From Candidatus Latescibacterota bacterium (GTDB lineage: Bacteria > Latescibacterota > UBA2968 > UBA8231): a stretch of 64,000 nucleotides of DNA. The notes beneath the pieces were generated by a model. The model worked only from the letters and a program-made list of their open reading frames with translations, was not told the origin of the DNA and made no database searches. Numbering within the stretch: position 1 is the stretch's first letter; each line of letters opens with the position of its first letter. Of this stretch, positions 13,614-53,359 are shown piece by piece. The stretch covers positions 2,688,001-2,752,000 of the forward strand of contig OZ220089.1 of NCBI GenBank assembly GCA_964291625.2, read 5' to 3'. The position numbers were made by a program, and so were the translations under genes.

Positions 13614-13935
13614 GCAGCCCACCAGGCCAACGTTCCACCGGATCGAGTGGCGCCGGAGTCACCATCGACTCAGTTCTGCTGCCAGGCGCCACCCGGTTCA
13701 CAAGAGTGCGTGTGCGGGTCTCCAACCACGGAGGGCGGTGCCGGCGGCGCAGGCCGCGCCTGGGCGGCCCATTACGCCGGGCCGGGGTCAACAACCACCA
13801 TCATCCAGGAGGCCCAGAGACCCGAGCGCAGCGAGGGGCTCGCCAGCCACTCGAATCACCCCCAGTCGATAGCTCCCCCAACCAGGCCCGGCGTACGCGC
13901 CGCCAAAGGCGCGGCCGGAGCCGCCGGCACCGTCC
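13614..13935 (+). repeat. Structured intergenic repeat element, copy 1 (full)
   Basis: Upstream hairpin gtggcgcc..ggcgccac; arms 13733-~13783 and ~13885-13935; GCGCAGC at 13826-13832. Confidence 0.92.
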
Positions 13936-13955
13936 GGCCCACAAGCACCCCCCCC

Positions 13956-15410
13956 TCAACAGCGCACCACATCCTCCACATCCTCTACCGCCAGCGTGTC
14001 CTCGTGCACCGGCTGCACCGCCCGCCCCCACGCCGCCAGCACCTCCGCATCCCGCATCAGCTCCGCGCTGCGCCGTGCCACCCGCTCGGGGTCCCACCCG
14101 GCGTAGAGCTGGCCCAGCAGGTCCTGACGCACCGCGGCGCAGGCCGCATCGCCGGCCAGGTCGTTCCACTCGCCCGGATCTTCCTCCAGGTTGAACAAGG
14201 CCGGAGGCGTATCCCCGTGGTACGCATACAGCTTCCACGGTCCCCGCCGGATCATCCGTGAAGGAGGATCGCCGCGGGTCGGCCCCAGCTCGCTGAATGT
14301 GAAATCGGGCCGGGACTCGTCCGGCAGACCCCGCATCTCGCTCCACAACGAGTGGCCGTCGAGGGCGGGCAGGGGCTCGCCGCCGGCCACCTGTATGGCG
14401 GTGGGGGCCCAGTCCAGCAGGTTGCAGATCGCCGTGCTCTCCGTGCCCGCCGGCACCACCCCCGGGAACCGGGCGATGAGGGGGACGCCCACCGAGCCCT
14501 CGTAGTAGTTGCTCTTCCACCAGCAGCCGTGCTCGCCGGCCATCTCGCCGTGGTCGCTGGCGTAGACCACGAGGGTGTTGTCGCTGAGTCCGGTCTCGTC
14601 GAGCTTGTCGAGGAGCTGGCCGACCTTGCGGTCGAAGTACTCGCACAGGCCGAAGTAGGCCGCACGGGCCACCCGGATGCGCTCGGCGGGCAGGGGTACC
14701 TCGATGCCGCGGTGCCTCTTGAAGCTGGTCACCGCCGCCGGCTCCCCGGACGGCTCGGGCTGCGGCACGTCGACGCGGTCGTAGTAGTAGTCGTAGAGAT
14801 CCTTCGGGGCGAAGAACGGGCAGTGGGGCAGCAGGAAGCCGGCCACCGCGGCAAAGGGCCGGTCACCGCCCCGGGCCTTCTCCTCCAGGTAGGCGCAGGC
14901 CGCGTCGGCGACGCGGTCGTCGAAGGACTGGTAGGTGGTGCGGCCGTGGCCGGCGATCTCGACGGACTCGCGGGTCTGGCCCGAGGTGCTGGCGGGGATC
15001 TCCTTGAACATCGGTCCGCCCTGGCCGGCTGCGCCCGGATGGTGGGCGCCGTACTCGCCGATGGGCCGGCGCTCGAAGCCGTGGCGCTGGTCGGGGCCGA
15101 CGAAGTGCATGCGGCCGATCAGCGCGGTCTCGTATCCGGCCGCGCCCACGGCGTGGGCCCAGGTGGGAAGGGCGGAGCTGAGGATGTGCTCGTTGAGCCA
15201 GGCCTCGTTGGCGCTGGGCCGCCGTCCGGTCATGAAGGCCATGCGCGCCGGCACGCACAGGGGCGAGGCGGTGTAGGCGTTGCGGAAGCGCATGCCCTCG
15301 CCGGCCAGGCGGTCGAGGTGCGGGGTGCGCACCACCGCGTCGCCGTAGCAGCCGAGGTGGTATTTGCTGTGCTGGTCGGAAAGGATGAAGAGGATGTTGG
15401 GGCGGTTCAT
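13956..15410 (-). CDS. Sulfatase (choline-sulfatase-like)
   Basis: PNILFILSDQH, formylglycine motif CVPAR..FMTG, SDHGEM.GEHG. Confidence 0.93.
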   Translation of the reverse strand: MNRPNILFILSDQHSKYHLGCYGDAVVRTPHLDRLAGEGMRFRNAYTASPLCVPARMAFMTGRRPSANEAWLNEHILSSALPTWAHAVGAAGYETALIGRMHFVGPDQRHGFERRPIGEYGAHHPGAAGQGGPMFKEIPASTSGQTRESVEIAGHGRTTYQSFDDRVADAACAYLEEKARGGDRPFAAVAGFLLPHCPFFAPKDLYDYYYDRVDVPQPEPSGEPAAVTSFKRHRGIEVPLPAERIRVARAAYFGLCEYFDRKVGQLLDKLDETGLSDNTLVVYASDHGEMAGEHGCWWKSNYYEGSVGVPLIARFPGVVPAGTESTAICNLLDWAPTAIQVAGGEPLPALDGHSLWSEMRGLPDESRPDFTFSELGPTRGDPPSRMIRRGPWKLYAYHGDTPPALFNLEEDPGEWNDLAGDAACAAVRQDLLGQLYAGWDPERVARRSAELMRDAEVLAAWGRAVQPVHEDTLAVEDVEDVVRC

Positions 15411-15464
15411 GGCCTTGGACTCGTCGGCGCGTAATTTAGGGCGCCCCATACATCCTACAAGAGA

Positions 15465-16709
15465 GTGATGCGCAGCGTGAGGTCCGCCAGAGGAGGTGTC
15501 CTCGAGCCCCTGGCCAACGGCGATTTCGTGCGCCTGTGGCTGGCCAACGGCCTCTGGTGGCAGGCGATGTGGATGGAGATGCTGGCCCTGGGGTGGGTGG
15601 CCCTGGAGTTGACCGACTCGGCATGGTGGGTCCAGGTCATCGCCTTCTACCGCGCCGCTCCCCTGCTGATCGTCGGTGTCTTCGGCGCCGTGATCACCGA
15701 CCGCTTCCGGCGGCGCCACATCGTCGCAAGCCTGCAGTTGATCAACGTCCTGGGGATGGGACTGCTGGCCCTGCTGCTCTTCCGCGGAGAGCTGGAGATC
15801 TGGCACCTGTCGGCGGTGTCGCTGGTGCTAGGGGCCGCCTGGGCCCTGGACTGGCCGACCCGCCGCAGCATGGTGCCCGATCTCGTCGGCAAGGCCCGCA
15901 CCGTCGACGCCATGGTTCTGGAGAACGTCATCCAGGGGATCACGCGCGTCGGCGGCCCCCTGGCGGCGGGCTATGTGACCGCGGCCTACGGCAGTCTGGG
16001 CGCCCTGCTGGCGCTGGTCGGGCTGGGCGCCCTCGGGCTGCTGCTGCTGCTGGGCCTCAGGACGGACTCCAGGGCCCCCGTCAAGGGCACCTGGACGTCG
16101 GGATGGGCCGGCCGCCAGGGATGGGCCAGTCTGAGAGGCTCGGCCCCGATGTTCGGCGTCTTCCTGGTCACCGTCCTGATGAACATCTGGACCTTCCCCT
16201 ACATGAACCTGCTCCCCGTCTTCGCCCGCGACGTGTACGGCCTGGGCCCGCAGGCGATGGGGTGGCTGGGCGCCGCCAGCGGGGCCGGCACGATCGTCGG
16301 CCTCGCCGCCGTCCAGCTCGGCCGCCGGAACCTCAGCAACGAGTGGGTCTTCGTCGGCGGCTCCCTGCTCTCGTGCCTGGGAGTCGCCGCCTTCGCCTTC
16401 AGCGCCACCTTCGGCCTCGCCCTGGCGATGCTGTTCTGCTCCGGCCTGGGGCAGGCGGGATTCAGCATCATGCAGAGCAGCATCATCCTGGTGAGGTCCT
16501 CCGACGAGATGCGCAGCCGCGCCATGAGCACCCTGGTCGTGGCCATCGGCGTCGGCCCCTTCGGCCGCCTGCAGAGCGGCGCCCTCGCCGAGACCTGGGG
16601 GGCCCAGGGATCCGTCGGCATCATGGCCGCCCTCGGCGGCCTCGGGATTGCGGCGACCACCGTCCTCCTCCGGGGATTCGTGGGCCGGCGAGAGGAAGCC
16701 TCCCCGTGA
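15465..16709 (+). CDS. MFS transporter
   Basis: ~12 hydrophobic segments, G.ITDRFRRR motif A. Confidence 0.88.
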   Translation: MMRSVRSARGGVLEPLANGDFVRLWLANGLWWQAMWMEMLALGWVALELTDSAWWVQVIAFYRAAPLLIVGVFGAVITDRFRRRHIVASLQLINVLGMGLLALLLFRGELEIWHLSAVSLVLGAAWALDWPTRRSMVPDLVGKARTVDAMVLENVIQGITRVGGPLAAGYVTAAYGSLGALLALVGLGALGLLLLLGLRTDSRAPVKGTWTSGWAGRQGWASLRGSAPMFGVFLVTVLMNIWTFPYMNLLPVFARDVYGLGPQAMGWLGAASGAGTIVGLAAVQLGRRNLSNEWVFVGGSLLSCLGVAAFAFSATFGLALAMLFCSGLGQAGFSIMQSSIILVRSSDEMRSRAMSTLVVAIGVGPFGRLQSGALAETWGAQGSVGIMAALGGLGIAATTVLLRGFVGRREEASP

Positions 16710-17269: not shown

Positions 17270-17621
17270 CACTGGCCCCGACGTCTACCACACCTCTCCC
17301 TGCCGAGAGCATCGCCAGGCATCCACCCCTCACTGCCTCCCATGTCTCCACCCCACTCTCCTTCAAGGGCGTCGCCAAGCCTTCCACCCTCCCACTGCCT
17401 CCCATGTCTCCACCCCACTCTCCTTCAAGGGCGTCGCCAAGCCTTCCACCCTCCCCACTGCCTCCCATGTCTCCACCCCACTCTCCTTCAAGGGCGTCGC
17501 CAAGCCTTCCACCCCCTCACTACCTCCCATGCCTCTACTCCCACTCTTCCAAGGGCGTCGCCAGCCTTCCACCCCTCATCGCCTCCCATGCCTCTACCCC
17601 ACTCCTTCCGAGGGCGTCGCC
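17270..17621. repeat. C-rich tandem repeat, 59-63 bp unit, ~5-6 copies, running into element copy 2
   Basis: Units start 17331, 17393, 17456, 17518, 17577 (cactgcctcccatgtctccaccccactctccttcaagggcgtcgccaagccttccaccctcc); degenerate unit at ~17270. Confidence 0.92.
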
Positions 17622-17811
17622 GGCGGCGCAGGCCGCGCCGGCGCGCGCATTACGCCGGGCCGGGGTCAACAACCACCCTCATCCCGGAGGCCCAGAGACC
17701 CGAGCGCAGCGAGGGGCTCGCCAGCCCTGAGAACCACCCCAAGTCGATAGCACCCGCAGCCAGGCCCGGCGTACGCGCCGCAAGGCGCGGCCGGAGCCGC
17801 CGGCGACGCCC
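17612..17811 (+). repeat. Structured intergenic repeat element, copy 2 (main hairpin only)
   Basis: gggcgtcgccggcggc ... gccgccggcgacgccc arms; ccgagcgcagcgaggggctcg core. Confidence 0.92.
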
Positions 17812-17840
17812 ACGCCAGGACACCCCCCAAAGGCTGACCA

Positions 17841-20434: not shown

Positions 20435-22696
20435 CTACCTGGCGAGGACCATCTTGCGTACGTGAGTGGCCGGCCCCGCCTTCAGGGCGCACAGGTACAC
20501 GCCGCTGGACACCCGTTCGCCGCGATCGTTGCGGCCATCCCAATGGGCGGCGCCGGCACTGGTCAGGTACCGGCCCGCCGCACGATGACGCAGGTCGATC
20601 TTCCGCACCAGGGCCCCGCGCACATCGTGGATCTTCAGCCGCACGTGGGCGGGTGCGTGGAGTTGATAGGGAATCCAGGTGTCCGGATTGAAGGGATTGG
20701 GGAAGTTGGCCAGCAGCGCCGTCCGTGCCGGTAGGGGCGTAGAGGATCGAATCGCCGTCGGCGCGGGGGGAGTGAAGTCTGGTGACGTATCCCACAGCAG
20801 AATCGTGCCGTCGGCGCTGGCACTGGCCAGGAGGTTCCCGTCCGGTGAGAACGTCACGGAATGGACAGATCCCGTATGGCCTTTGAGGATGGCTCTTGGC
20901 GACCCGCCACTCACCTCCCACAGCCTGACGGTCTGGTCCGAACTGCCACTGGCCAGGATGTCTCCCCGAGGCGAGAAGGCTACCGCATTGATCCAGGCGC
21001 CATCGACCTCCATGGTGCCCTCTTGCTGACCGCTGCTCAGTTCCCACAGCCTGATCGTCTGATCCCAGCCGCCGCTGGCGAGGGTTCTCTCGTCCGGCGA
21101 GAAAGCAACGGAAGTGACCCAGCCCGTGTGCCGCAGAGTGGACTTCAGCTGTCCGCTGTCGGCATCCCACACTCGCGCCGTCTTGTCTCCACTGGCACTG
21201 GCGAGGATCTGTCCGGAGGGTGAGAAGGCCACGGACAGGACCCGTTGACCATGCTCCCCCAGGCTGGCTCTGGCCTGTCCGCTGGACACGTGCCACAACC
21301 GCACCTTCCCGTCCTCGTCGCCGCTGGCCAGGGTTGCACCGTCCCGGGCGTATGCCACGCAGAGCACGCCATTCCGATGGCCCTCGAGGATCCTCGCCGC
21401 CAACGGTGTCCAGGTGCCGACGTTCGAGGCTCCCCAGGTGGCCTTCCGCACCTCGGCCATGTCCCACAGCACGACCCAGTCGTTCAAGTGGCCACTGGCG
21501 AGTGTCCGGCCATCGGGCGCGAAGGCGACGGCGCTGGCACGAGGCCCCCGTGGGGTTTTCATGGTGGCCTCTTCCTGTCCCGTGCCGAGGTCCCACAATC
21601 GCACCGTCCCGTCCCAACTGCTGCTGGCGACGGCGGCGGCATCGGGGGCGAAGGCCACGGAACTGACCCTGTCTCCATGTCCATGGTCCAGGAGAGCGCC
21701 TTCCTCCAGTCCGGAGCGGACGTCCCACAGCCGTACCTTGTTTTCTCCCCCGGCACTGGCGAGTGTGGTTCCATCGGGTGAGAAGGCCACGGAAGTGAAG
21801 TGCGAGGCCGCGCGCCTGGCCCTGGCTTTCCTCTCCCTGGTGCCGATCTCCCACAACACGAGTTCGTGGTTCCTGCCGACACTGGCGAGGGTTCTGCCAT
21901 CGGGGGAGAAGGCTACGGAGTTGACCCCGGATGAATGCCCGCGCATGTCGGCTCTCGGTTGTCCGCTGTCGACGTCCCACAGGCGGATCGTCTGGGTCCT
22001 GGCACTGGCAAGGGTTCGACCTTCGGGGGCGAAGGCAACGGAGTTGACGGACCCGGCTCCCCCATATCCCTCGAGGAGGGCTCCTGGTTGCCGGGTGCCG
22101 GGGTCCCATAGCTGCACCGTGCCGTTTCGGTAGCCACTGGCGAGTGTCCGGCCATCTGGCGCGAAGGCCAGGGAATTGACCGAGGACCGTTGTCCTTCGA
22201 GGGCAGCCGTCGATTCTCCGGTGGCCACCTGCCACAACCGCACCGTCTGATCCTTGCTGCCGGTAGCCAGGAGTTGTCCGTCCGGGGAGAACGTGACGCA
22301 GAGGACATCGTTCAGATGGCCTTCGAGGGTGGCCCTTGACTCTCCCGTGTCGACGTCCCACAACCTCACCCTATGGTCGGCACTCGCACCGGCGAGGGTT
22401 TTCCCATCAGGAGCAAAGGCCACGGAGTTCACCGGGGCCGCATGCCCTGTGAGCAGGGCGACTTCAGCATTGGTGTGGACATCGTAGAGCCAGACGCCGA
22501 CGTTCCCGGCCACCGCCAGCCGGGTGCCATCGGGAGAGTAGGCCACGGCCCGATCGCCTCCACTGGTGAGTCCCTTGCCCAGACGGAGGACGGCCCCCTC
22601 GGGCAATCCCCAGCGGGCATGGTCCTGAGCCTGGCTGCCCGGCGGGAAGGACAGGGGGTTCAGCAGAAGGGCCAGGGGGAACAGGATCCTCTTCAT
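20435..22696 (-). CDS. Secreted WD40-repeat protein with C-terminal FlgD-Ig/sorting-like domain
   Basis: Signal peptide; more than 12 GH...V.SVAFSPDG..LAS.S.D.TVRLWD repeats; C-terminal NFPNPFNP..WDGRN..G..VSSGVY. Confidence 0.92.
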   Translation of the reverse strand: MKRILFPLALLLNPLSFPPGSQAQDHARWGLPEGAVLRLGKGLTSGGDRAVAYSPDGTRLAVAGNVGVWLYDVHTNAEVALLTGHAAPVNSVAFAPDGKTLAGASADHRVRLWDVDTGESRATLEGHLNDVLCVTFSPDGQLLATGSKDQTVRLWQVATGESTAALEGQRSSVNSLAFAPDGRTLASGYRNGTVQLWDPGTRQPGALLEGYGGAGSVNSVAFAPEGRTLASARTQTIRLWDVDSGQPRADMRGHSSGVNSVAFSPDGRTLASVGRNHELVLWEIGTRERKARARRAASHFTSVAFSPDGTTLASAGGENKVRLWDVRSGLEEGALLDHGHGDRVSSVAFAPDAAAVASSSWDGTVRLWDLGTGQEEATMKTPRGPRASAVAFAPDGRTLASGHLNDWVVLWDMAEVRKATWGASNVGTWTPLAARILEGHRNGVLCVAYARDGATLASGDEDGKVRLWHVSSGQARASLGEHGQRVLSVAFSPSGQILASASGDKTARVWDADSGQLKSTLRHTGWVTSVAFSPDERTLASGGWDQTIRLWELSSGQQEGTMEVDGAWINAVAFSPRGDILASGSSDQTVRLWEVSGGSPRAILKGHTGSVHSVTFSPDGNLLASASADGTILLWDTSPDFTPPAPTAIRSSTPLPARTALLANFPNPFNPDTWIPYQLHAPAHVRLKIHDVRGALVRKIDLRHRAAGRYLTSAGAAHWDGRNDRGERVSSGVYLCALKAGPATHVRKMVLAR

Positions 22697-22823
22697 CAGG
22701 TTCAGGCATTCCTCGGGACGGGCAGGAGGGAGGCTCGGGCCGCGGTTCGGGAACATACGAACCGGCCACCCTCGACCCCCTATCGGGGCCGTCAACGCGG
22801 CTCGGCGACGGAGGTGCCTCGCG

Positions 22824-23396
22824 ATGATGGACAACTTCGCCGGTCACGGTCTTTACCTGGAGACGGCGCGCCTGAGACTGCGGCCATTCGAGAGTGGGGA
22901 CTTCGAGCTGGCCGTCCCGTTCTATCGAGATCCCGACTTCCTGAATGCCATGGAGGAGGCGCCGCCGGACGAACCTGTCACAGCCGGCTATCTCCGACGC
23001 GCGGGCAAGGCCATGGCGGAACAGGGATTCCTCTTTGCCATCGTCGAGAAGGCGAGGGGCCGCACCATCGGCGAAGTCTGTCTTCAGTGGATGAATCTGG
23101 ATCGCGGGAGAGTACCGGGTGAGAAGGTGATGCGCCTGCCCATCGGAATCTGGGACAAGTCCCTGTGGGGAAGGGGCTACGGAAAGGAGGTGGCGCGGCG
23201 CCTGATGGCGTACGCCTTCGAAGAGCTGGGAATCGACCGACTCTGCCCGATGGATGTCGCCGCCGACAATGCGCGTTCCGTGGCCCTGTGGCGGTCCCTC
23301 GGTCTGACCGTCGCCAGGGAAGTGGACGGCGGAAGAGTGCTGGACTTCGAGGTTACACGGACCGAGTATGAGCGGATGCAGCGTGGAGAGCGGTAG
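22824..23396 (+). CDS. GNAT N-acetyltransferase (RimJ/RimL-like)
   Basis: LETARLRLRP, WGRGYG, N.RS..L..SLG. Confidence 0.85.
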   Translation: MMDNFAGHGLYLETARLRLRPFESGDFELAVPFYRDPDFLNAMEEAPPDEPVTAGYLRRAGKAMAEQGFLFAIVEKARGRTIGEVCLQWMNLDRGRVPGEKVMRLPIGIWDKSLWGRGYGKEVARRLMAYAFEELGIDRLCPMDVAADNARSVALWRSLGLTVAREVDGGRVLDFEVTRTEYERMQRGER

Positions 23397-42371: not shown

Positions 42372-42378
42372 GCACGGC

Positions 42379-43576: not shown

Positions 43577-43593
43577 CGAGAGGCTGGAAACTC

Positions 43594-43830: not shown

Positions 43831-43898
43831 GCCCGCCGGACCGAAGGGAAGATCCAGGTCAGGCCCTACGAGCCGGAGATAGCCTGAGCAACCAAGCC

Positions 43899-44195
43899 AT
43901 GGATCACCCCTCGCCCCGGCCCTCCACCCCATGGCGGGTCCACAGCGTCGAAGCCCTGCCCGGACTTCGGTTGCAGGTCCGCTTCACGGACGGCACATCG
44001 GGTGAGGTGGACATGGGGAGGTTCCTCCAGAGCCCCGCCGTCCGAGGCACCCCCTTCGAGCCGCTCCTCGATGAGAGCCTGTTCAGCCAGGTTCGCGCAG
44101 ACCTCGGAGCCGTCACTTGGCCCACGGGAGCCGATCTCGCTCCCGACGCCATGTACGACGCCGTCCGCGCCTCAGGAGAGTGGATCCTCGAGTAG
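43899..44195 (+). CDS. DUF2442-domain protein
   Basis: L.VRFTDG..G.VD, F.QV...GAVTWP.GADLAPD.MY. Confidence 0.85.
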   Translation: MDHPSPRPSTPWRVHSVEALPGLRLQVRFTDGTSGEVDMGRFLQSPAVRGTPFEPLLDESLFSQVRADLGAVTWPTGADLAPDAMYDAVRASGEWILE

Positions 44196-44206
44196 TCGGG
44201 GACACC

Positions 44207-44535
44207 CCCCAACCGCAGCCCACCAGGCCGGCGCTCCACCAGAGCAAGTGGCGCCGGACCCACCCCAGGCCCAGAACAACCCCCCAGGCGCCACCCCACC
44301 CCTAAAGGAGTGTGTGGTGGTGGTCCCCCCCAGGGCGGTGACGGCGGCGCAGGCCAAGCCGAGCGGCGCATTACGGCGGGCCGGGGTCAACAACCACCCG
44401 CATCCAGGAGGCCCAGAGACCCGAGCGAAGCGAGGGGCTCGCCAGCCCCACGAATCCACCCCAGGCGATAGCCCCACCAAACAGGCCCGCCGTACGCGCT
44501 GCCGAGGCGCTGGCCGGAGCCGCCGTCACCGCCCC
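44207..44535 (+). repeat. Structured intergenic repeat element, copy 8 (full)
   Basis: Arms with compensatory tacggcgggcc/ggcccgccgta; core GCGAAGC. Confidence 0.93.
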
Positions 44536-44589
44536 GCGCCAGAACCACCCCCCATCACCACAGCTGTCGTCTTCATGGTCGATCTCCCT

Positions 44590-45780
44590 TCAGTCGAAGA
44601 AACCCGCGTCCTCTTCGGAGAGGTGCCGCTTCGCCTCCTCGACGACGAACTCCACCCCCAGTCCCGGGGAATCCCACACCTCGATGTGGCCGTCGGCGAC
44701 GATCGGGTCGGGCAGCCCGGTGACCATGTCGAGCCAGGACTCCTCGTACCGGCCCGGCATCTCGAAGGCGATGTAGTTCTGCGGCAGGGTGGCGGCGAGA
44801 TGGACATGGGCCGCCAGTCCGAAGAGCCCGTCGATCACTCCGTGGGGGGCCATGAGGATGCCGTGGAGGTCGGCGTACTCGGCGATCCACTTCGTCTCCG
44901 CGATCCCGCCGACGTCGGCCGGGTCGGGGCCGACGACGTTCACCGCCTGCTTCTCGAAGAGTTCCTTGAAGTGCTGCCGCAGGTAGATCTGCTCCCCCGT
45001 GTGGATCGGCGTCGAGGTGCTGCGCGTCACCTCCCGGTAGAGGTCGGCGAGCACGTACGGGACGTAGTCGCCGGTGATCATGTCCTCGAGCCACATCAGG
45101 TTCAACGGCTCCACGGCTTGGGCCAGCCGTATCGAGTCGGGGACCGTCATTCCGGGACCGCAGTCGAGGGCGAGGCCGACCTCGTCTCCCAGCTCCGCCT
45201 TCATCGCCTCGGCGCAGGCGATCACGTGCTTCAGGCCCCGCTCCGTCAGCGGGCCCCGGTTGGCGTGCCAGCGGCCGCCCGAGCTCTCCCCGTAGAAGAA
45301 GCCGGGGACGTGCGCGGGCATGCCGCTGTGGAAGGCGACGCCCATCTTGCACAAGGTGAACCCCTGCGGCAGCTCCCGGACGGCGCGGGCGGCAGCGGCG
45401 TATTCCTCGGGCCGGGAGTCCGTCACCGGAACCGGAGAGCCGGTCAGGTAGACCCGCACCCGGTCGCGGATCTTGCCGCCGAGCAGCTTGTACACCGGAA
45501 CCCCCGCGGCCTGGCCGGCGATGTCCCAGAGCGCCATCTCGATGGCGCTGACCGCACTGCCCCAGGGCTTGAAGCCCCCGAGCCGCCGGATGCCGAGCAT
45601 GACCCGCTCGACGTCGGTCGGGTCCATGCCGAGAACGAGGTCGCGGTAGAACAGGACGTGGGGCTTGAGGTAGGGCTTGGAGGACTCCACCTGCCCCGTG
45701 CCGACGATCCCCTCGTCCGTGAGGATGCGGACGATCGGATGGCGGCCGATGACGGCGCACTTCAGATCGATGATCTTCAT
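44590..45780 (-). CDS. Mandelate racemase/MLE family dehydratase
   Basis: SAIEMALWD, LDCG, LED, TGEQ, APH, PGLG. Confidence 0.92.
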   Translation of the reverse strand: MKIIDLKCAVIGRHPIVRILTDEGIVGTGQVESSKPYLKPHVLFYRDLVLGMDPTDVERVMLGIRRLGGFKPWGSAVSAIEMALWDIAGQAAGVPVYKLLGGKIRDRVRVYLTGSPVPVTDSRPEEYAAAARAVRELPQGFTLCKMGVAFHSGMPAHVPGFFYGESSGGRWHANRGPLTERGLKHVIACAEAMKAELGDEVGLALDCGPGMTVPDSIRLAQAVEPLNLMWLEDMITGDYVPYVLADLYREVTRSTSTPIHTGEQIYLRQHFKELFEKQAVNVVGPDPADVGGIAETKWIAEYADLHGILMAPHGVIDGLFGLAAHVHLAATLPQNYIAFEMPGRYEESWLDMVTGLPDPIVADGHIEVWDSPGLGVEFVVEEAKRHLSEEDAGFFD

Positions 45781-46700
45781 GACAGCCTCTGGGCGACCTC
45801 CACCGGGAGGCCGTCTCCCGCGTCGAGGGTGATCGAGCGGATGGGCACCCCAAGGGCGAGATCGCGCTCCCCAGGCGGCGTGCCGTGGGCGATCTCCCCG
45901 GCCAGGGCGTCCACGTCGTCCGTCCAGAGCCCGAAGGAGCCCACGACCCCGCGGCCGAGACCATCGGTGGTCCCGCCGTCCTTCCGCCCCCGCAATTCGA
46001 TGTCGCACATGCCGGCGGCGAAGACGTACCCCTCGTGCGTGCCGCTGTCGGAGTGGTCGATGACGGACAGCCCCAGCTTCTCCCCGTACAGCGCCTTCCC
46101 CCGGCCGATGTCCGGGCACTCCATGGCCATGTGATCGAAACCCTTGAGCAGGCTCCCGGCGGAGAGGCTGGCGATCCGCTGCTTCTCCCGCCGCCTCTCC
46201 TGGTTGTGCAGCCTCGGGTCCACGATCTCGGAGATCTGGATCGGGTAACCGTTCGGATCGACGAACTCCAGCAGGCTCCTCTGCATGTAGGCGTGGTCCA
46301 TCGGCTGCACGATGGGTCCGTCCTTCGTTGCCCGGAACCTGTTGGACGCGAAGAAGCCCTCGAAGTGCGAGAAGGCATGGTGGTTGCCCTCGACGTAGAA
46401 GGACCAGTGTCCGACCGAGCCGTAAGCCTGCCCCGTCCTCTCGCCCTCGGGCGACAGCAGCACGGGGGCGGCCTCGTCCTCCCGCAGAACCAGGAAGGAG
46501 TCGCCCACCTGGAGGACGGCCTCGCGGTCGCCGCTCTCGGCGGCGGCGCCGTCCACCCACTCGCCCTTCTCGTTCTGCACGGCGGTGGTGTTCTGCAGCT
46601 CGGTGAGGCCGAGGCGCCGGCCATAGACCTCCCGGCACTCGTCCCAGAGGCGTGTCCGCATCTCGATGTAGGCGATTCCCGTGATCATGTTCGACAACAC
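45777..46700 (-). CDS. Two-domain VOC/glyoxalase-family protein
   Basis: Y...LGL, GHWSF, F.DPNG..I, FDHMA, Y.EKLGL. Confidence 0.75.
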   Translation of the reverse strand: MLSNMITGIAYIEMRTRLWDECREVYGRRLGLTELQNTTAVQNEKGEWVDGAAAESGDREAVLQVGDSFLVLREDEAAPVLLSPEGERTGQAYGSVGHWSFYVEGNHHAFSHFEGFFASNRFRATKDGPIVQPMDHAYMQRSLLEFVDPNGYPIQISEIVDPRLHNQERRREKQRIASLSAGSLLKGFDHMAMECPDIGRGKALYGEKLGLSVIDHSDSGTHEGYVFAAGMCDIELRGRKDGGTTDGLGRGVVGSFGLWTDDVDALAGEIAHGTPPGERDLALGVPIRSITLDAGDGLPVEVAQRLS

Positions 46701-46782
46701 CTTCCCAGGCCCGTGCCGGAGACGCAGGGGTGAGGGAGGGGGACCGCGTGTGCTACGTCACTGCCGACGGCAGGTTGCATCT

Positions 46783-47091
46783 TCACGGCTCACCTCCAAG
46801 CGCACGCACAACCGCCTCGGGATCGCGGTCGATGACGGTCAGCAGCACCCGGGCGGCCCGGTCAGGCACACGCCGCCCCTGTTCCCACTCCTGCAGGGCC
46901 CGCGCATCCAGGCCGAATCGGTCCGCGAACTTCCGGCGACTCAGCTTCATGCGCTTGCGCAGCGCGACGATATGTTCGGCGGCGGGATCGTCCACGATCC
47001 GGCAGGGCAGTTCCACTTCGCCGCGCACATGGGCAAGCACCTCGCCCAAGGCGGTCTCGACTTCCTGCCCCACCTGAGTCCGTTCCGTCAT
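46783..47091 (-). CDS. XRE HTH antitoxin (HigA2-like)
   Basis: I.ALR...LS...FA..FG.....LQEWEQGRR.PD.AA..LL.VI...P. Confidence 0.88.
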   Translation of the reverse strand: MTERTQVGQEVETALGEVLAHVRGEVELPCRIVDDPAAEHIVALRKRMKLSRRKFADRFGLDARALQEWEQGRRVPDRAARVLLTVIDRDPEAVVRALGGEP

Positions 47092-47094
47092 CTG

Positions 47095-47260
47095 TCAGCC
47101 TTCTCCTCCCCAACGCATCTTGCGAATCCCTCCCGTACCACGGAGCAAAGGCGCCGCGTCGGGATCGGCGACGATGGCGGCCTCCATCTCCCTGCGCTGG
47201 TCCACCCGTGAGGAGCTTGCCGATGGCGCGCTCGTAGGCTCGGGTGATGACCAGTCGCAC
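47095..47260 (-). pseudogene. RelE/HigB2-family toxin, frameshifted and truncated
   Basis: VRLVITRAYER..KLL, then a second frame with I.ADPDA..L.RGTGGIRKMRW followed by a stop. Confidence 0.75.
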
Positions 47261-47327
47261 GGTCACTGAAAATGCGGCATTGCCGCAGGTCCGGCAAGGT
47301 GTCCTGGGCAAGGCCTCTCTCTCCCGT

Positions 47328-47632
47328 CCCACCAGGCCCGCGTTCCCCACGGATCGAGTGGTGCCGGAGTCCGGCACCCCCACCAAGCGCCACCCGCCCC
47401 AGAGGGAGTGCGTGTGGGCGGTCCCCACCCAGGGCGGTGGCGGCGGCGCAGGCCGAGCCGAGCGGTGCACTATGCGGGGCCTCGCCACCAACCACCACGC
47501 ATCCAGGAGGCCTAGAGACCCGAGCGTAGCGAGGGCACCCCAACCCTCGAACCACCCCCCGTCGATAGCTCCGCCACCCAGGCAGCGCGTACGCGCTGCC
47601 GCGGCGCGGCCGGAGCCGCCGGCACCGCCCCC
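47328..47632 (+). repeat. Structured intergenic repeat element, copy 9 (full, divergent)
   Basis: Arms conserved; core GCGTAGC. Confidence 0.9.
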
Positions 47633-48081
47633 TGCCAGTACCCCCCACCTACCCCTATCTTCCACTCACCCAAACCCATCCATGCCAATCCTTCTGATCC
47701 CCCACCCGGCCAAGCAGATGGCCCCCTCCGATTGCGCAGCGCCATCACCACCCAGGGCCTCCGGGCTGGCCCGCGGGCCAGCCAAACGGCCGCCCATCGG
47801 AGAGTCGTTGGACACATGCCTCGGGGAGAATCCCCATGCCGGTCGGACCCCCTAACGAGGAGACAACCGCAGAACGCTCCTTGATTGGCTCTAGGGTAGC
47901 CCTGCAGGTTTCAACTCCAAACGCACCGCTGATGGGCCCCAGTTTGGAACACAGCAATGAAGCTGGGAGGCCTCAACTTGCATTCAAGTGCCCGTGAATG
48001 CGGTGGTGGCTCCCGCTCCCGAGCATCCTCTCTATGGGGCACGGAATGGTGATAAGGCGCCCCGGGAAAGGCCGACCTCTA

Positions 48082-49860
48082 ATGCGACTATCACGAGTAC
48101 AGATACGGAACTTTCGGAATTTTAACACCCTGGACGTCGAGCTATCAGAGAATGCGGTTGTAGTCGGCGAGAACAAGATCGGCAAGACCAACCTGCTGCA
48201 CGCGATGCGATTGGTGCTTGATCCGACCTTGCCCGACTCAGCACGGCATCTGAAGGACGAAGATTTCTGGGATGGTCTGCCTCGACCCCTTGCGCGCGAA
48301 CACAGGATAACCGTTTCGATTGACCTCACGGACTTCGAAGGCGACGAGGACCAAGTTGCTTTGCTGTGCGAACACCTGGTCGTAGCTGAGCCAATGACGG
48401 CGAGGCTGACATATGTGTTCCAGCCGCTTGAGACATTGGATGGCGAACCGTCCAAGGAGTCTGACTACGAGTTCGTGCTGTACGGGGGCGATCGTCCCCA
48501 GAATCGCGTTGGTTATGAGATTCGTCGACGGCTGCCTTTCGATCTGCTACCCGCGCTTCGCGATGCGGAGGGAGATCTGCGAAATTGGCGACGTTCTCCA
48601 CTCCGCCCACTCCTGGACCTAGTTGCTGGGCGTATCGATCGGGAAGCACTGGTGGCACTAGCGAGGGACATTTCTGCTGCCACAGCAGCTGCCGCTGGCA
48701 ACGAGGAAGTGAAGAGGCTCGTCGATGAGATAAACCGGCGCGTGAGGACCCTAGTGGGTCCGTTTCAGACGGTCGATACGTCGCTTGGATTCTCTCCGAG
48801 CGATCCAGAGCGCCTCTTGCGAGCGATGCGCCTGTTCGTTGACGCGGGGAGGCGCGAAATCGGCACGGCCAGCTTGGGATCCACGAACGTGCTGTACCTT
48901 ACCCTCAAGGCTCTGCAACTAGATGAATCAGTTGCGGAGAGGGAGAGGCATCACACGTTCCTCGCAATTGAGGAGCCAGAGGCGCATCTCCACCCCCACT
49001 TGCAGAGACTCGCTTACCGGGGGCTTCTCCGCCCTCCAGAAGGTCATGGTCACACATCACCCCTAACGGCGGTGCTTACCACGCACTCACCTCACATCGT
49101 GAGTGTTGCCCCTCTCAATTCGCTTGTCCTATTGCGAAAGACGCAAGCCGGGAACAGCAGTGAGGGGGTGTCTACGGCCAAATTGGAGCTTGCCTCGGAA
49201 GTCGTGGCCGATCTTGAGCGATACTTGGACGTTACACGCGGAGAGATGCTCTTCGCCAAGGGCGTACTGCTCGTTGAGGGCGAGGCAGAGCGATTCTTGC
49301 TTCCGGCTCTAGGGAAGTCCAATGGAATCGATTTCGACGAGCTCGGGATCTCGGTTTGCTGCGTAGGGGGTACGAACTTCCGGCCGTACATCGAGTTTCT
49401 GGGTGACCGTGGGCTGGACCTGCCAGTCGCCGTGCTCACAGATGGAGATCCGGCGAAGGACGGTCGGAGACGCGGGGAGGAACGGGTGTTGAGTTTGCTG
49501 CGTGATGCCGTCGCCCCGTCGGACCTTGATGGGAAGACGGACGGGCAGCAGCTTGAAATGGCTAGGGACCGGGGGTTTTTCGTCGGTGATTACACCTGCG
49601 AGGTAGATCTGTTCGGGAGCGGGGCCCACAGGCAAATTGGGAAGACACTAGTTGAGTTGGCTCCAGGGGAGGCCGTTCGGAGTAGAGCGGAAGCCTGGAC
49701 AGCCAGCCCGGAGGACTTGGATCCAGTGCGCTTTCTGGCGGACATCTCATCGATTGGAAAGGGTCGCTTCGCTCAGCGGCTATCGGCGCGCGTCGAAGGT
49801 GGCAGCTGGCCAGCCTACATGAGGGATGGTATCGAGTATGTCCGCACCCGCTGTCGCTAG
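48082..49860 (+). CDS. gajA: OLD-family ATP-dependent nuclease (ABC ATPase + TOPRIM), Gabija GajA-like
   Basis: NFRNF, GENKIGKT, IEEPEAHLHP, TTHSP, LLVEG..E, TDGD; visibly lower GC. Confidence 0.85.
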   Translation: MRLSRVQIRNFRNFNTLDVELSENAVVVGENKIGKTNLLHAMRLVLDPTLPDSARHLKDEDFWDGLPRPLAREHRITVSIDLTDFEGDEDQVALLCEHLVVAEPMTARLTYVFQPLETLDGEPSKESDYEFVLYGGDRPQNRVGYEIRRRLPFDLLPALRDAEGDLRNWRRSPLRPLLDLVAGRIDREALVALARDISAATAAAAGNEEVKRLVDEINRRVRTLVGPFQTVDTSLGFSPSDPERLLRAMRLFVDAGRREIGTASLGSTNVLYLTLKALQLDESVAERERHHTFLAIEEPEAHLHPHLQRLAYRGLLRPPEGHGHTSPLTAVLTTHSPHIVSVAPLNSLVLLRKTQAGNSSEGVSTAKLELASEVVADLERYLDVTRGEMLFAKGVLLVEGEAERFLLPALGKSNGIDFDELGISVCCVGGTNFRPYIEFLGDRGLDLPVAVLTDGDPAKDGRRRGEERVLSLLRDAVAPSDLDGKTDGQQLEMARDRGFFVGDYTCEVDLFGSGAHRQIGKTLVELAPGEAVRSRAEAWTASPEDLDPVRFLADISSIGKGRFAQRLSARVEGGSWPAYMRDGIEYVRTRCR

Positions 49861-51649
49861 ACCATCGCCGGCTTATTGGCAGGCCGTGGAAGAGCTTCAG
49901 GAGAATCCTGGTCAGTGGCAAGCGTACAACTCGGATGGACACTGCGTTGTGCTCGCAGGGCCAGGAAGCGGCAAGACCAGGACACTCACCGTGAAGATTG
50001 CGAAGCTGCTGATTGAGACAATTCACGAACCTCGTGGGTTAGCGTGCATCACCTACAATTCGGAGTGTGCGCGTGAGCTGAAGGCTAGGCTTGAGCGACT
50101 GGGAGTGTATGAGTCCAGAAGTGTCTTCATTGGGACAGTTCACTCATTCTGCTTGAGGCGAGTGGTGATTCCCTTTTCAGCCTTGGCGGGCATCGAGCTG
50201 CCGGAGGACTTCCGTATTGCACTAGAGAGCGAACAAGAGGCCGCGTTTGAGGAGGTCAGGGCTCGGGTCAGCCCCGATGGGCGGTCGCGGGGGCTGCGTA
50301 CGATGGCGGAGAAGTACCGACGTACTCACCTTGATCGGGACGGTGCGGAGTGGCAGGAGGACAAGGAGTTGGCGGCCTTGGTGGCCGGCTACGAGCAGTT
50401 GTTGAGAGCAGGAGGGATGATCGACTTTGACGACATGGTGCTTATCGGGCTGAAGCTGATCGAGAGTCGGAAGTGGGTACGCCGGGCACTTCACGCACAG
50501 TTCCCCGTGGTCGTTGTTGATGAGTACCAGGACTTGGGCTTGGCGCTGCATCGGATTGTGAGCAATCTCTGTTTCCGAGGAGGTTCGCGTCTCTTTGCGG
50601 TTGGGGATCCTGACCAGTCGATCTATGGCTTCGCAGGAGCACGGCCAGAGCTATTTCGCGGCCTAGCGGACTCTCCCGAGGTGGAGGCCGTACAGCTGCC
50701 ATTCAACTACCGAAGTGGGGAGACGATTGTTCAAGCCGCGGAGATCGCGCTTGGGGAGACCCGTGGCTATGAGGCGCGTGGAGCTAACGCGGGATCGGTA
50801 GACTTTCACGAGCGACCGAGGGGTCTTGACGATCAAGCGGAGTATATCTGTGGTGAGATAATCCCGTCTGCAATGGAGAGGGTTGAGGGCCTACAGCTTG
50901 CCGATGTGGCAGTGCTGTATGTCGACAGGAGCGACGGAGACGTGATCGCTGGGAGGGCAAAGCAACACAAGTACGCTACAGTGAGGGTTGACCGGGGTGC
51001 ACCCTACCGCAAGACTCCGCTGATCAGATGGTTAGAGGACTGTTCTGCATGGTGCGCGGGGGGTTGGGCTACTGGGTCCCCGCGGTTAAGCTCTCTCCTT
51101 GGTACTTGCGCCTCCATCCTTGGGATGCATGCTGGGGATCGTGAGTGGCATGAGCACAAGGTGAGGCTCGTGGGAGTGCTGCTTTCCCAACGGCAGCCAG
51201 AGCTGTTACTGCGAGAGTGGCTGACAACGCTCAAGAGGGAAGTCTTAGACCTGTTCTTGGAGAGGGACATGACGTTGAGGGACGAGCGGGAGGCGTTAGG
51301 TGTGGTCACGGAGGCCTGCAAGATCGGCGGAGTGCTTGGAGAGTGGAGTGTCGCCGCTTTCGGTGGGCAGGGCGGTTCCCCTGACCACCTAAACCTCATC
51401 ACCCTGTGGAGTGCAAAGGGGCATGAGTATAGAGTAGTCGTCATGATGGGTATGGAGGAGGGACGGGTTCCTGGGTGGAACGCTAGCGAGTTGGAGAAGC
51501 GGGAGCAGCGGAGGCTGTTCTACGTGGGGCTCACTAGAGCGAAGGAGGAGGTCCACATGACCTACTCTGGCTGGAGGGAGAATCGGTACGGGCGACGGTT
51601 CTTTGATGGACCCTCGAGGTTTCTTGTGGAGGTTCGCGAACGTCTCTAG
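49838..51649 (+). CDS. gajB: UvrD/PcrA-family helicase, Gabija GajB-like
   Basis: AGPGSGKT, VDEYQD, VGDPDQSIY.F.GA, NYRS, SAKG.E, RLFYVGLTRA; overlaps the OLD gene. Confidence 0.85.
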   Translation: MSAPAVARPSPAYWQAVEELQENPGQWQAYNSDGHCVVLAGPGSGKTRTLTVKIAKLLIETIHEPRGLACITYNSECARELKARLERLGVYESRSVFIGTVHSFCLRRVVIPFSALAGIELPEDFRIALESEQEAAFEEVRARVSPDGRSRGLRTMAEKYRRTHLDRDGAEWQEDKELAALVAGYEQLLRAGGMIDFDDMVLIGLKLIESRKWVRRALHAQFPVVVVDEYQDLGLALHRIVSNLCFRGGSRLFAVGDPDQSIYGFAGARPELFRGLADSPEVEAVQLPFNYRSGETIVQAAEIALGETRGYEARGANAGSVDFHERPRGLDDQAEYICGEIIPSAMERVEGLQLADVAVLYVDRSDGDVIAGRAKQHKYATVRVDRGAPYRKTPLIRWLEDCSAWCAGGWATGSPRLSSLLGTCASILGMHAGDREWHEHKVRLVGVLLSQRQPELLLREWLTTLKREVLDLFLERDMTLRDEREALGVVTEACKIGGVLGEWSVAAFGGQGGSPDHLNLITLWSAKGHEYRVVVMMGMEEGRVPGWNASELEKREQRRLFYVGLTRAKEEVHMTYSGWRENRYGRRFFDGPSRFLVEVRERL

Positions 51650-51936
51650 GACGGGGGGTAAGGGGTGTCTATTTACGATGCTTAGGTTTGGAGGGGGTGA
51701 GGAACCCTTCGGGCCTTCATCAGAAGGAGGGAAGAGAGTCCTGATCCATTGCGTTCCTCTCTGCTCGTAGGGGATGCATCTCTTCTGGGGAGGGCGTCTT
51801 GGAGAGCGGCCGCAGTTTAGGGGGAGGCGTGGTGGATGCGGTGGGCGACGAATAATCTTGCTTGCTGCGGGAGACCGCAGGAGGTGGGTGCTTGAGTAGA
51901 ACCGCAAGGCAGACCGTATAGTTTGGAGGCGCTAAA

Positions 51937-52395
51937 GTGAAGACAGTCTTCTTTGTTCTTTCGGTAGTGATGTTTTATCCAGAGGCCAAGTCGGAAGATG
52001 CCGAGGAAGAAGGCCCTGTTCTGACTCTCGATAGGCTGTTGTCCAAGTCTGAACAGGCAGAGATGGGCCTGCACAAGCTGACGGAGGAGGAGAAGGGGCG
52101 GCTTCGTGACTACGTGGTCAGAATGTTCATCGCGGGGGTTGAGGAAGGGAAGAGGCAGGTTGGTAGCGCCCAGTTGTCCCAGGTCATCGAGAGCCAGATC
52201 GACGGTGACTTTGACGGGTGGGAGGGTGAGACGATCGTGAAGTTGATGAATGGTCAGATTTGGCAGCAGTCGGAGTTCTACTACCACTATCACTATGCCT
52301 TTATGCCGGACGTACTGATTTACAATTCGGGTGGGGTGTACAAGATGATTGTGGAAGGTGTTGACAGGGCGATCGGGGTCATTCAATTGAGATAG
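51937..52395 (+). CDS. Hypothetical secreted protein
   Basis: Signal-like N-terminus; IDGDFDGWEGETIVKLMNGQIWQQ; ggagg RBS; lower GC. Confidence 0.7.
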   Translation: MKTVFFVLSVVMFYPEAKSEDAEEEGPVLTLDRLLSKSEQAEMGLHKLTEEEKGRLRDYVVRMFIAGVEEGKRQVGSAQLSQVIESQIDGDFDGWEGETIVKLMNGQIWQQSEFYYHYHYAFMPDVLIYNSGGVYKMIVEGVDRAIGVIQLR

Positions 52396-52589
52396 GGCGG
52401 GGAGTTTGGACGGGGGTGGCAAGTTCGTTAGGCGTCGCCCAGGGCCTGGAGTGCCAGTCGACCATCGTGGCCATCCGCTGGAAACCGGGACCGATGGCGG
52501 TCAACTGGGGGTCGCCGCCACCGATCAAAGCACCGGAGTTGGTCTCGGCCCCCGCGACACACGGTCCAAAATGAGTGTGTGGTTGAGTG

Positions 52590-52700
52590 ATTCCCCTGCA
52601 GACATCCACATTGCCGCGGTTGCGGCTACTGCCGGCGCCTGCGCCGTCTGGCGCCGAGCTGGCCGCCGATCGCTTCAAGCACGTCAAGTTCAGGGAGTCG
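52590..52700 (+). pseudogene. Possible PIN/VapC toxin C-terminal remnant
   Basis: ADIHIAAVA..G, then in another frame ADRFKHV; short and frameshifted. Confidence 0.35.
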
Positions 52701-52807
52701 GAGACGTATACGGACCCTGCCAGGCGAGCCCCACGAGGCGTGAGCTATGGCCGTCAGGCAGCCTTGTGAGATCTCTGCGTCTCATCGCACTCTGCCGGAG
52801 CTCACCG

Positions 52808-52993
52808 ATGGAATACCGCGTCTTGATCGAGCAGGATGAAGATGGAGTCTTCGTGGCAGCAGCCCCCTCACTCCCCGGTTGCATCAGCCAGGGTGCCACA
52901 CGTCAGGAGGCGCTGACCGGCATCCGCGAGGCGATGACCCTGTACCTGGAGAGCCTTGCCGCGTATGGTGATCCCATACCGCCTCCGGTCTGA
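52808..52993 (+). CDS. hicB: HicB-family antitoxin (orphan)
   Basis: MEYRVLIEQDEDGVFVA..PSLPGCISQG.T..EAL..IREA..LYLE. Confidence 0.9.
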   Translation: MEYRVLIEQDEDGVFVAAAPSLPGCISQGATRQEALTGIREAMTLYLESLAAYGDPIPPPV

Positions 52994-53018
52994 AGAGACC
53001 GTCGAGCTCCAGGATCCC

Positions 53019-53359
53019 CCGCCAACCCCAGCCCCACCAGGCCGGCGCCCCACCAGATCGAGTGGCGCCGGAGTCCCCCCCCGGCCCAGAACCCCTGCCA
53101 GGCGCCACCCGGCCCAGAAACAGTGTGTGTGGGCGGTCCCCGCAGGGCGGTCCCCGCAGGGCGGTGACGGCGGCGCAGGCCGAGCCGAGCGGCGCATTAC
53201 GAGGGGCCGCGCCACCAACCCCCGCATCCAGGAGGCCCAGAGACCCGAGCGCAGCGAGGGGCTCGCCGACCCCTCGAACCACCCCCAGTCGATAGACCCA
53301 CCACCAAAGCCCCGCGTACGCGCCGCCGAGGCGCGGCCGGAGCCGCCGGCACCGCCCCC
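53019..53359 (+). repeat. Structured intergenic repeat element, copy 10 (full; 14-bp duplication at left foot)
   Basis: gggcggtccccgca x2 at 53131-53158, then the left arm; core GCGCAGC. Confidence 0.93.

Follow-up and report, generated by a model that had tools for sequence, protein, structure and literature searches.

A 64,000-nucleotide stretch of the genome of Candidatus Latescibacterota bacterium (GenBank assembly GCA_964291625.2, contig OZ220089.1, positions 2,688,001 to 2,752,000 of the forward strand; hereafter the window) carries ten copies of a genuine, previously undescribed structured element of ~330 nt. They are part of an array that is a local amplification of one subfamily, about a dozen copies, inside a plastic island of catabolism and defence genes. 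Among 151 genomes sampled, the element family was seen only in two genera of sponge-associated Gemmatimonadota. The interpretation that we favour, and to which we give about an even chance, is that of a family of cis-acting RNA structures in these two genera, with one subfamily amplified in a flexible island and providing, through its copies, patches of homology at which accessory genes build up. Positions without further label are whole-window coordinates; G000 denotes the genome under study (5.9 Mb, 69.5% G+C, 95% complete), and C1 and C2 are its two contigs.

Architecture and conservation of the fold

The element consists of two modules, a 5' module comprising a C-rich leader and a first hairpin, and a core module (module B) in which three small hairpins meet at a junction closed by an irregular stem of ~50 bp (P1), whose internal loops are conserved. 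All parts listed in the initial annotation of the window are visible in our alignments, namely the C-rich leader, the hairpin GTGGCGCC...GGCGCCAC, the GTGTG tract, the ~50-nt arms, GGTCAACAACC, the inner CCGAGCGNAGCGAGGGGCTCG hairpin and CGATAG. The proposal that this architecture is common to all copies holds in the alignments with the exception of the sixth copy in the window (c6), which is partial, and of the second (c2), which is devoid of the leader and hairpin-1 module. The left border of the element reads ...CAGCCCACCAGGCC and its right border ...CACCGCCCC(N)CCAGA. Copies are 60-90% identical to one another at the DNA level, and in an alignment of 43 copies, which group by position and not by genome, the motif GGCGGCGCAGGCC shows little or no variation; near-invariant core motifs of this kind point to constraint in place. 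The inner segment has the same orientation in 43 of 43 aligned copies, on which ground an invertible promoter switch was rejected. A pseudoknot between the GAUAG loop and a CUAUC tail was also rejected, as only 10 of 38 copies have CTATC in the 110 nt downstream and it shows no covariation. Compared with shuffled controls, one copy folds with a z score of -5.5 on the + strand and -4.8 on the - strand.

A search of the 5.9-Mb genome with an nhmmer profile built from the ten copies detected twelve, all on the + strand and all within 65 kb (C1:2675854-2741365). An additional, diverged copy lies outside the array, in the spacer between sufB and sufC (L089:4039-4217; genes assigned by Pfam). This 334-nt spacer is a single unit in which upstream hairpins are followed by the core module, by GGAGAA at 3-8 nt after P1 and by the TTG start codon of sufC. 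At least 8 of the 10 genomes of the genus have the element in this spacer; G008 has the 3' part only, and G009 was not placed.

The orthologous copies at the suf locus of eight species were used to assess whether pairing is maintained when the sequence changes. RNAalifold predicts 46 pairs, with 95.9% of the cells paired, and nine of these pairs have changed on both sides with pairing kept, a number reached by only 2 of 500 shuffles. The covariation score is 0.177, compared with 0.077 in shuffles (0/500) and at most 0.037 when the partners are slid. Among these compensatory substitutions, by which structured cis-acting RNAs are generally recognised in orthologues, are changes from G-C to U-A, from U-A to G-C and from C-G to G-C, as well as a change of the inner hairpin from CUCGAC/GUCGAG to CUCGCC/GGCGAG. 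Since the suf copies are orthologues inherited at one locus, changes in both arms cannot reflect different transposases. Compensatory change at this fixed locus indicates that selection maintains the structure where it lies, and RNA is the simplest form in which it would do so. The array family shows a weaker trend in the same direction, with 13 of 74 pairs changed on both sides against 7.9 in shuffles (0/500). In the copies of G091, which belongs to the second genus (g6), the outer stem has been rewritten with the same asymmetric internal loops retained (GCA opposite G(G/C)A, and an AU bulge before UACG/CGUA). Taken together, the covariation at the suf locus and in the array and the loops kept in G091 show that the fold and several unpaired motifs are under selection.

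The first-hairpin loop of the sufB-sufC spacer (L089:3897-4038, equivalent to G000:C1:4269897-4270038) reads GUGAGCGCAGCGAAC. This loop and the array-type inner hairpin have GAGCGCAGCGA in common, which may be a shared protein-binding or tertiary-contact motif.

Distribution of the family

With BLAST, the array-type element was found in six of nine other genomes of the genus and in none of 31 further relatives. The best assemblies, G006 and G007, each contain a single array in one orientation, of ~77 and ~60 kb, respectively. An exact-pattern scan covering one genome per species (185,579 species) returned 35 stretches, 19 of which were confirmed by nhmmer; all 19 come from metagenome-assembled genome records titled Gemmatimonadaceae or Candidatus Latescibacterota, and the 16 others are chance matches in unrelated taxa. 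The same scan gave one stretch in viral contigs, which nhmmer did not confirm, and nine in metagenome contigs, which represent subfamilies already seen and no new context.

Two covariance models were used to reach more distant members, R1, a model of the core module without gene flank, and R2, derived from the diverged type. R1 gave weaker full-length matches at four sites in G091 and single diverged matches in G000, G001, G003 and G009. R2 detected the family in 9/9 members of the genus in addition to G000 and in 2/2 genomes of genus g6, and gave no match in the other 16 genera of the bacterial family or in 87 genomes of 13 other families (151-genome phylum sample). These negative results refer to the sampled genomes under strict filters, i.e., the family was not found in those searched.

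Public sequencing runs holding part of the window amount to 22 rows, many of them labelled sponge metagenome, and two of these runs covered 23 of 30 bins. The four public runs that were examined are all stored as contigs and accordingly carry no information on strand, ends or expression. Since public contigs break or join inside repeats, contig joints were left unused; similarly, the lack of cover of the block 47452-52763 in the contig runs X2, X4 and X6 was not taken as evidence.

The initial annotation had recognised no known family in the element, and this is borne out by the searches of Rfam 15, which gave no match at the gathering score in the whole window. At E ≤ 10, the region 40150-44650 yielded two chance snoRNA matches only, located away from the elements, and at E ≤ 1 none was obtained for four loci with diverged copies. 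In the literature, full-text listings and the opening parts of abstracts mention no such element in Gemmatimonadota or between sufB and sufC.

Orientation of the copies and a possible role as RNA

Dispersed copies located between co-directional genes are in sense orientation in 7/7 cases, for which the probability under random orientation is ~0.008. These sites are sufB-sufC, rny-ymdB, DUF4838-amidohydrolase (G001:C129), G001:C18, G009:C6, G001:C40 and G091:C88. In two divergent spacers, the downstream gene, encoding a solute-binding protein and a 568-aa open reading frame (ORF), respectively, is co-oriented with the element, and no antisense dispersed copy was found among the resolved contexts (the four R1 matches in G091 left out).

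We suggest that the element acts as a folded RNA segment of the transcripts of the neighbouring genes, positioned a few to ~100 nt before the next ribosome-binding site (RBS). Its role would most likely lie in the processing, stability or translation control of intercistronic regions or 5' untranslated regions, and the long double-stranded stem would be a natural target of RNase III or of a binding protein. The element resembles cis-regulatory leaders and riboswitches in its multi-helix covarying fold that ends a few nt before the RBS (suf and the array copies c3, c4, c7 and c10). In contrast to riboswitches, the downstream genes (sufC, ymdB, hicA and genes for an amidohydrolase, a TIM-barrel protein, a solute-binding protein, a GHL10-like protein, an MR/MLE protein, two PhyH proteins and IlvD) share no function and form no consistent class, about 40% of the array copies are not followed by a co-oriented gene, and neither a ligand pocket nor an expression platform was identified. 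Membership among riboswitches or gene-specific leaders was accordingly rejected.

Several observations weigh against this role. The genes around the dispersed copies were called with our own codon-usage caller, and R2 includes the RBS and start-codon flank and may thus favour sites upstream of genes; the copies at suf, rny-ymdB and G001:C129 were first found by R1, which has no such flank. The sole run labelled as RNA exists in the form of contigs, from which neither strand nor ends nor level can be read. In the array, the orientation of the copies is independent of that of their neighbours, with four of the 12 G000 copies in a (+,+), four in a (-,+), two in a (+,-) and two in a (-,-) context by our own gene calls, so that some copies would be antisense or at convergent 3' ends; for 4/12, the gene downstream is not co-oriented. 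Folding is about equally good on the reverse and the forward strand. Counts of G.T versus A.C mismatches in the long stem are 33 versus 19 in one alignment and 30 versus 45 in another, and ~8 versus 6 in the suf orthologues; because the two alignment methods contradict each other, this strand test was dropped as evidence. Orthologous copies, at an identity of 0.85-0.90, are just a little better conserved than the 4-fold sites of the flanking genes (0.76-0.90). Finally, no promoter or terminator consensus marks the copies in the region 40000-54000, and some breakpoints of island rearrangements lie away from the elements.

The array could also be read as one in which each copy is an independent small-RNA gene, with the 5' module as promoter and leader and the long stem as the body of an RNA acting in trans, e.g., in defence or in regulation of the island. 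An own promoter would allow an orientation independent of the neighbours, and an optional 5' module as well as a multi-helix architecture with conserved unpaired stretches would be in line with such genes. However, the scan of 40000-54000 revealed a single sigma-70-like site against 1.5 expected, located outside the elements, and no terminator-like site after the copies, and the operons that hold the dispersed members leave no space for a promoter. We therefore consider small-RNA genes improbable.

Part of the evidence would also be compatible with a non-autonomous mobile DNA element resembling miniature inverted-repeat transposable elements (MITEs) or PATEs, whose 50-nt arms would be terminal inverted repeats recognised by a transposase that is encoded elsewhere or has been lost, and whose RNA-like fold would be a by-product. 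The element is present in multiple copies, several of its subfamilies occupy loci that are not orthologous between species, and truncated and tandem-partial copies are common. Presence/absence polymorphism between relatives, which had been proposed as a check, was found: G006 has solo copies that are absent at the same sites of G000, and the copy of G003 between rny and ymdB has no counterpart in G000. That both strands fold about equally well and that the mismatch test is ambiguous can be counted on the same side. However, two comparisons of filled and empty sites (one at the solo copy that follows ilvD in G006, the other at rny-ymdB, filled in G003 and empty in G000) gave no target-site duplication, in agreement with the initial annotation, and no clean boundary, at borders too diverged to fix the ends or a target duplication. 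The Y1 HUH transposase domain (PF01797) gave no match in G000, no transposase domain was detected in the 40 window ORFs that were scanned, and neither a linked enzyme nor an autonomous relative was found in the viral, genome and metagenome contig scans; reverse transcriptases (RVT_1) are encoded on C2 only. The long inverted arms lie inside the unit, with the 5' module outside them; the two arms are not identical, and their differences are conserved, the same asymmetric loops occurring in two genera. Moreover, recognition of terminal repeats does not predict compensatory changes at a vertically inherited locus, the dispersed copies are in sense in all seven co-directional contexts, and the array subfamily is confined to one 65-kb region. 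On balance, a mobile DNA element seems unlikely to us.

The more specific suggestion of the initial annotation, an element folding as single-stranded DNA and mobilised in trans, is not supported, as there is no Y1 HUH gene in the genome and no tyrosine recombinase within 1.4 Mb. Nor does the logic of REPINs or PATEs apply, since the copies are not dispersed in the manner of these elements and most of them are orthologous by position. Membership in the REPIN/RAYT or PATE families was rejected on the lack of PF01797 and on the size and spread of the element, a 330-nt unit with 12 copies in 65 kb and one diverged copy elsewhere, as opposed to palindromes of 20-40 nt or subterminal hairpins in many copies throughout the genome.

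Copies of the array and their neighbours

All ten copies reported for the window were recovered within ~100 nt of their original positions by repeat families (D1, D3 and D4), alignment and nhmmer. Two of the twelve array copies lie upstream of the window (L001:7854-8161 and L001:9899-10195; nhmmer). Directly upstream of the first of these, at L001:5417-6928 (window -14584 to -13072), inspection of the translations by eye showed a pair of genes for an AbiEi-like antitoxin and an AbiEii-like nucleotidyltransferase toxin. All copies in the window are on the + strand, with extents given by nhmmer and neighbouring genes assigned by Pfam.

The first copy in the window (c1, 13614-13936) is full length, with module B at 13730-13937 (R1 score 193.5 bits), and is flanked by two genes on the - strand, encoding a GH42-like protein and a sulfatase. 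Copy c2 (17519-17817, module B at 17609-17813 by the covariance model) has a HAD gene on its left and the start of a GHL10-like gene 24 nt to its right. In place of the 5' module, c2 carries a tandem repeat at 17328-17541 (63-nt unit repeated ~3.4 times, 80-92% identity); its orthologues in G006 and G007 are simply without the 5' module, and copies with module B only are present in both genomes. Copy c3 (23431-23753) is full length and is located between a GNAT gene (22824-23396) and an MR/MLE enolase-family gene starting 14 nt to the right; in c3 and its orthologues, the stem is directly followed by CCAGGAGA. Copy c4 (32240-32531) has a 31-nt internal deletion in the junction, as seen in the alignment, with a divergent ECF sigma factor gene on the left and the start of a PhyH gene 38 nt to the right. 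Copy c5 (36592-37005) carries two insertions of ~50 nt (alignment and covariance model), and a HicB gene (36210-36461, - strand) is its left neighbour.

Copy c6 (40220-40530) had been counted as a copy, and its left ~260 nt are indeed homologous to the others in the alignment, but it is not a full element, since the right arm is missing and the covariance model yields a partial match only (40393-40486). The full-length copy c7 (41115-41444) follows hicA and hicB and is located 46 nt before the start of a PhyH gene. Copy c8 (44213-44541), also full length, served as the reference for the folds and for model R1; it is preceded by genes for an XRE helix-turn-helix (HTH) protein and a DUF2442 protein (43594-44195) and followed by a convergent MR/MLE gene. 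Copy c9 (47323-47638) has a gene for an MqsA-like HTH protein on its left and, according to pairwise alignment, continues into a 3' tail and a broken fragment of ~75 nt from the 5' end of ilvD (together 47323-47780, + strand). Finally, c10 (53033-53365) is full length and lies 69 nt before the start of an IlvD/Edd dehydratase gene. The matches of c7, c8 and c10 were also obtained with the covariance model. The left neighbours named in the initial annotation were all recovered by Pfam: HicB at c5, HicA and HicB at c7, XRE-HTH and DUF2442 at c8, the MqsA-like protein at c9, a HicB-like protein at c10, HAD at c2 and GNAT at c3.

Accessory genes next to the copies

Three of the five HicB-like genes of the genome lie within the 65-kb array, which represents 1.1% of the genome, and each of them is directly to the left of a copy; the genome-wide enrichment count covers HicB only. 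The three array HicB proteins are mutually 38-45% identical, which points to separate acquisitions.

In two places, a partial duplicate of the element flanks cargo. Copy c6 duplicates the left ~260 nt of c7 (40255-40457 and 41149-41351, 89% identical), and the pair encloses hicA (40478-40894, + strand) and hicB (40894-41106, + strand; both by Pfam). Likewise, c9 with its 3' tail and ~75 nt of ilvD is a diverged duplicate of c10 and the start of ilvD, and this pair encloses a 5.3-kb Gabija block, the left border of which is the unit of c9 and the ilvD fragment. The accessory block (47998-52993, + strand; Pfam and synteny) contains a gene for an OLD/GajA-like ATPase with a TOPRIM domain (47998-49860, + strand), an overlapping gene for a UvrD/GajB-like helicase (49826-51649, + strand), two small ORFs and a HicB-like gene (52406-52993). 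The codon usage of the Gabija-like pair (47998-51649) is atypical. The block is absent from G006, which has other DNA and a partial element instead, and an extra solo copy after ilvD that is absent from G000. The arrangement around the GNAT gene also differs, being element-GNAT-element in G006 and GNAT-element in G000; in G007, both the GNAT gene and the 5' module are missing.

The recurrent order is thus a left duplicate of variable length, the cargo and a full copy. The duplicates and partial copies end at profile positions ~54, 85, 104, 260 and 285, or extend over the full length plus 175 nt. These variable ends argue against one fixed crossover site and hence against a dedicated site-specific recombinase.

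As an explanation, we propose that the array copies passively double as homology patches of ~300 nt, in addition to their putative role in the transcripts. Incoming DNA containing part of an element would recombine with a resident copy by a single crossover, presumably of the homologous (RecA) type, giving a left duplicate that is cut short, then the cargo and then a full copy, and direct repeats would arise automatically. Recombination of this kind would account for the one orientation of the copies and for the position of toxin-antitoxin, GNAT, HAD and Gabija genes just to the left of them. The earlier idea that the element carries or attracts cargo can consequently be upheld in part: "attracts" is a fair description of the array, given the three of five HicB genes and the partial duplicates, but carriage of cargo as a mobile element was not shown.

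The same features recall an integron-like capture platform, in which each copy would be a large folded attC-like site for an unidentified recombinase encoded elsewhere and cassettes would be inserted alongside. Three complete relatives have arrays in one orientation, toxin-antitoxin and GNAT genes lie immediately 5' of the copies (including three of five HicB genes), element-gene-element units exist (hicAB at a spacing of 894 nt, GNAT in G006), and the Gabija block is present or absent between relatives. However, most of the "cassettes" are syntenic core catabolic genes with 85-95% identity in relatives, and only blocks of the Gabija, GNAT and hicAB type vary. Spacings range from 0.9 to 24 kb and comprise multi-gene blocks on both strands, the borders of the duplicates end at variable points with no single crossover site, and members of the family also occur singly in housekeeping operons. 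The unit measures 330 nt, compared with 55-141 nt for attC, and the alignments show no GTTRRRY-type core at its borders (no dedicated attC model was run).

With respect to an enzyme, the initial annotation had found none in the window, and in agreement with this no recombinase or transposase domain was detected by Pfam in the 40 scanned window ORFs, which are a part of all window ORFs. Tyrosine recombinase domains (PF00589) occur at four places of the genome (C1:77 kb, C1:206 kb, C1:4.12 Mb and C2:591 kb), and the genome search found none near the array (C1:2.676-2.741 Mb) or within 1.4 Mb of it. We regard an integron-like platform as improbable. Equally small is the chance that we assign to a new, integrase-independent capture system, in which the element would be the site at which an unlinked or host recombination activity inserts accessory cassettes (toxin-antitoxin, GNAT and Gabija genes) immediately 5', creating an array in one orientation within the catabolic island, with the operon copies as evolutionary source or decoys. 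Such a system would be comparable to an integron but have a site and an enzyme of unrelated origin.

A CALIN is a cluster of attC sites without an integrase; IntI is required for an integron but not for a CALIN. The array is similar to attC arrays and CALINs in its folded repeats of one orientation, in the toxin-antitoxin and acetyltransferase genes directly upstream of them and in the variability of some blocks. It differs in the lack of IntI, in repeats that are 2-5 times longer and have no R/L box layout or GTTRRRY core, in intervening DNA that is mostly multi-gene, on both strands and syntenic, in its variable ends and in its single relatives in operons. Membership in integrons or CALINs was rejected, as neither IntI next to the array nor the attC layout was found and the blocks are not mostly single, co-oriented cassettes. 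The array also resembles the accretion of islands at tRNA and small-RNA genes, where structured direct repeats separate accessory blocks, with a partial and a full copy as in c6/c7 and c9/c10. In contrast to such islands, the blocks hold no integrase genes, most copies are full length and conserved, and the variable length of the duplication suggests that crossover was homologous and not site-specific.

The surrounding island

For the most part, the island keeps its gene order in G006 and G007, at an identity of 85-95%, and the majority of the copies have positional orthologues across species. Hence the array is old, and inheritance rather than recent movement accounts for most of it. Flanking paralogues are only 22-45% identical at the protein level, far less alike than the elements, so that the elements were not co-duplicated with their neighbours; segmental co-duplication was rejected on this ground.

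The larger genes of the island, which encode a sulfatase, a heparinase II/III-like enzyme, GH-like proteins, several MR/MLE and PhyH enzymes and IlvD/Edd, together with an ECF sigma factor, a WD40 protein, a Gabija-like OLD ATPase and a UvrD helicase, indicate a mix of catabolism of (sulfated) polysaccharides and sugar acids with defence. Five MR/MLE paralogues (3787-4902, 8168-9421, 23767-24816, 44590-45780 and 57916-59118) are 22-32% identical and share a 60-kb stretch with at least three PhyH dioxygenases, which suggests a large catabolic island for acid sugars or unusual substrates. After one MR/MLE gene, two direct repeats of 67 nt (9383-9449 and 9530-9596) are 93% identical and 147 nt apart.

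Genes for eukaryote-like repeat proteins are often reported in sponge symbionts. The window contains a gene for a WD40 protein of 799 aa with 12 repeat units (20435-22834, - strand; DNA repeat family D2) and one for a small ankyrin-repeat protein (37370-37849, - strand). Two adjacent paralogous ABC ATPase/permease fusions of 608 and 639 aa are encoded at 25755-29488 (- strand), where the DNA repeats D15 and D20 occur at a spacing of 1802 nt, and a small DUF4143 fragment (29501-29758) follows them. A 371-aa ORF (33921-35036, - strand) matches no more than the C-terminal two thirds of the class-I catalytic domain of cysteinyl-tRNA synthetase (profile positions 83-300 of 301), together with the anticodon-binding part, and is possibly a truncated or paralogous CysS within the island.

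Two functions of such sites in the chromosome were also considered. A dif/Xer site was rejected because inspection showed no AT-rich XerD-type arm, and a Ter-like role at the replication terminus because the cumulative GC skew turns at ~0.08 and ~3.08 Mb and not at the array. On C1, the skew peaks at ~0.08 Mb, reaches its bottom at ~3.08 Mb, ~350 kb from the array, and does not return to zero; the replichores of C1 appear to be unequal.

Relation to known repeats and implications

Structured repeats that are co-transcribed with neighbouring genes are known from enterobacteria (REP/BIME and ERIC), Streptococcus pneumoniae (BOX) and Neisseria (Correia). Like these, the present family is intergenic, multi-copy and lineage-restricted, consists of modular imperfect palindromes that fold as RNA, occurs in operons, has no enzyme of its own and often has truncated variants. 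In contrast to them, the unit is 330 nt long and combines a 50-bp stem with a three-hairpin junction and a 5' hairpin module, the number of copies is very low (1 to ~20 per genome), and all copies of one subfamily are restricted to one 65-kb island, where they share an orientation. An orthologous copy with compensatory changes throughout the genus is a further difference, the comparison at the sequence level having been made via Rfam only.

The reach of the finding is limited to two genera, and the function proposed here is a reading of the sequence. If the favoured interpretation is true, the element would be a large new structured RNA with covariation support, absent from Rfam, in uncultivated sponge symbionts. 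Its covariance model can be used by annotators against spurious ORF calls across element regions. A single element would lead two lives, as a conserved structure of the suf operon and as a homology patch that places defence and toxin-antitoxin genes, and would provide a testable example of how short structured repeats may seed integron-like gene arrays without a dedicated recombinase.

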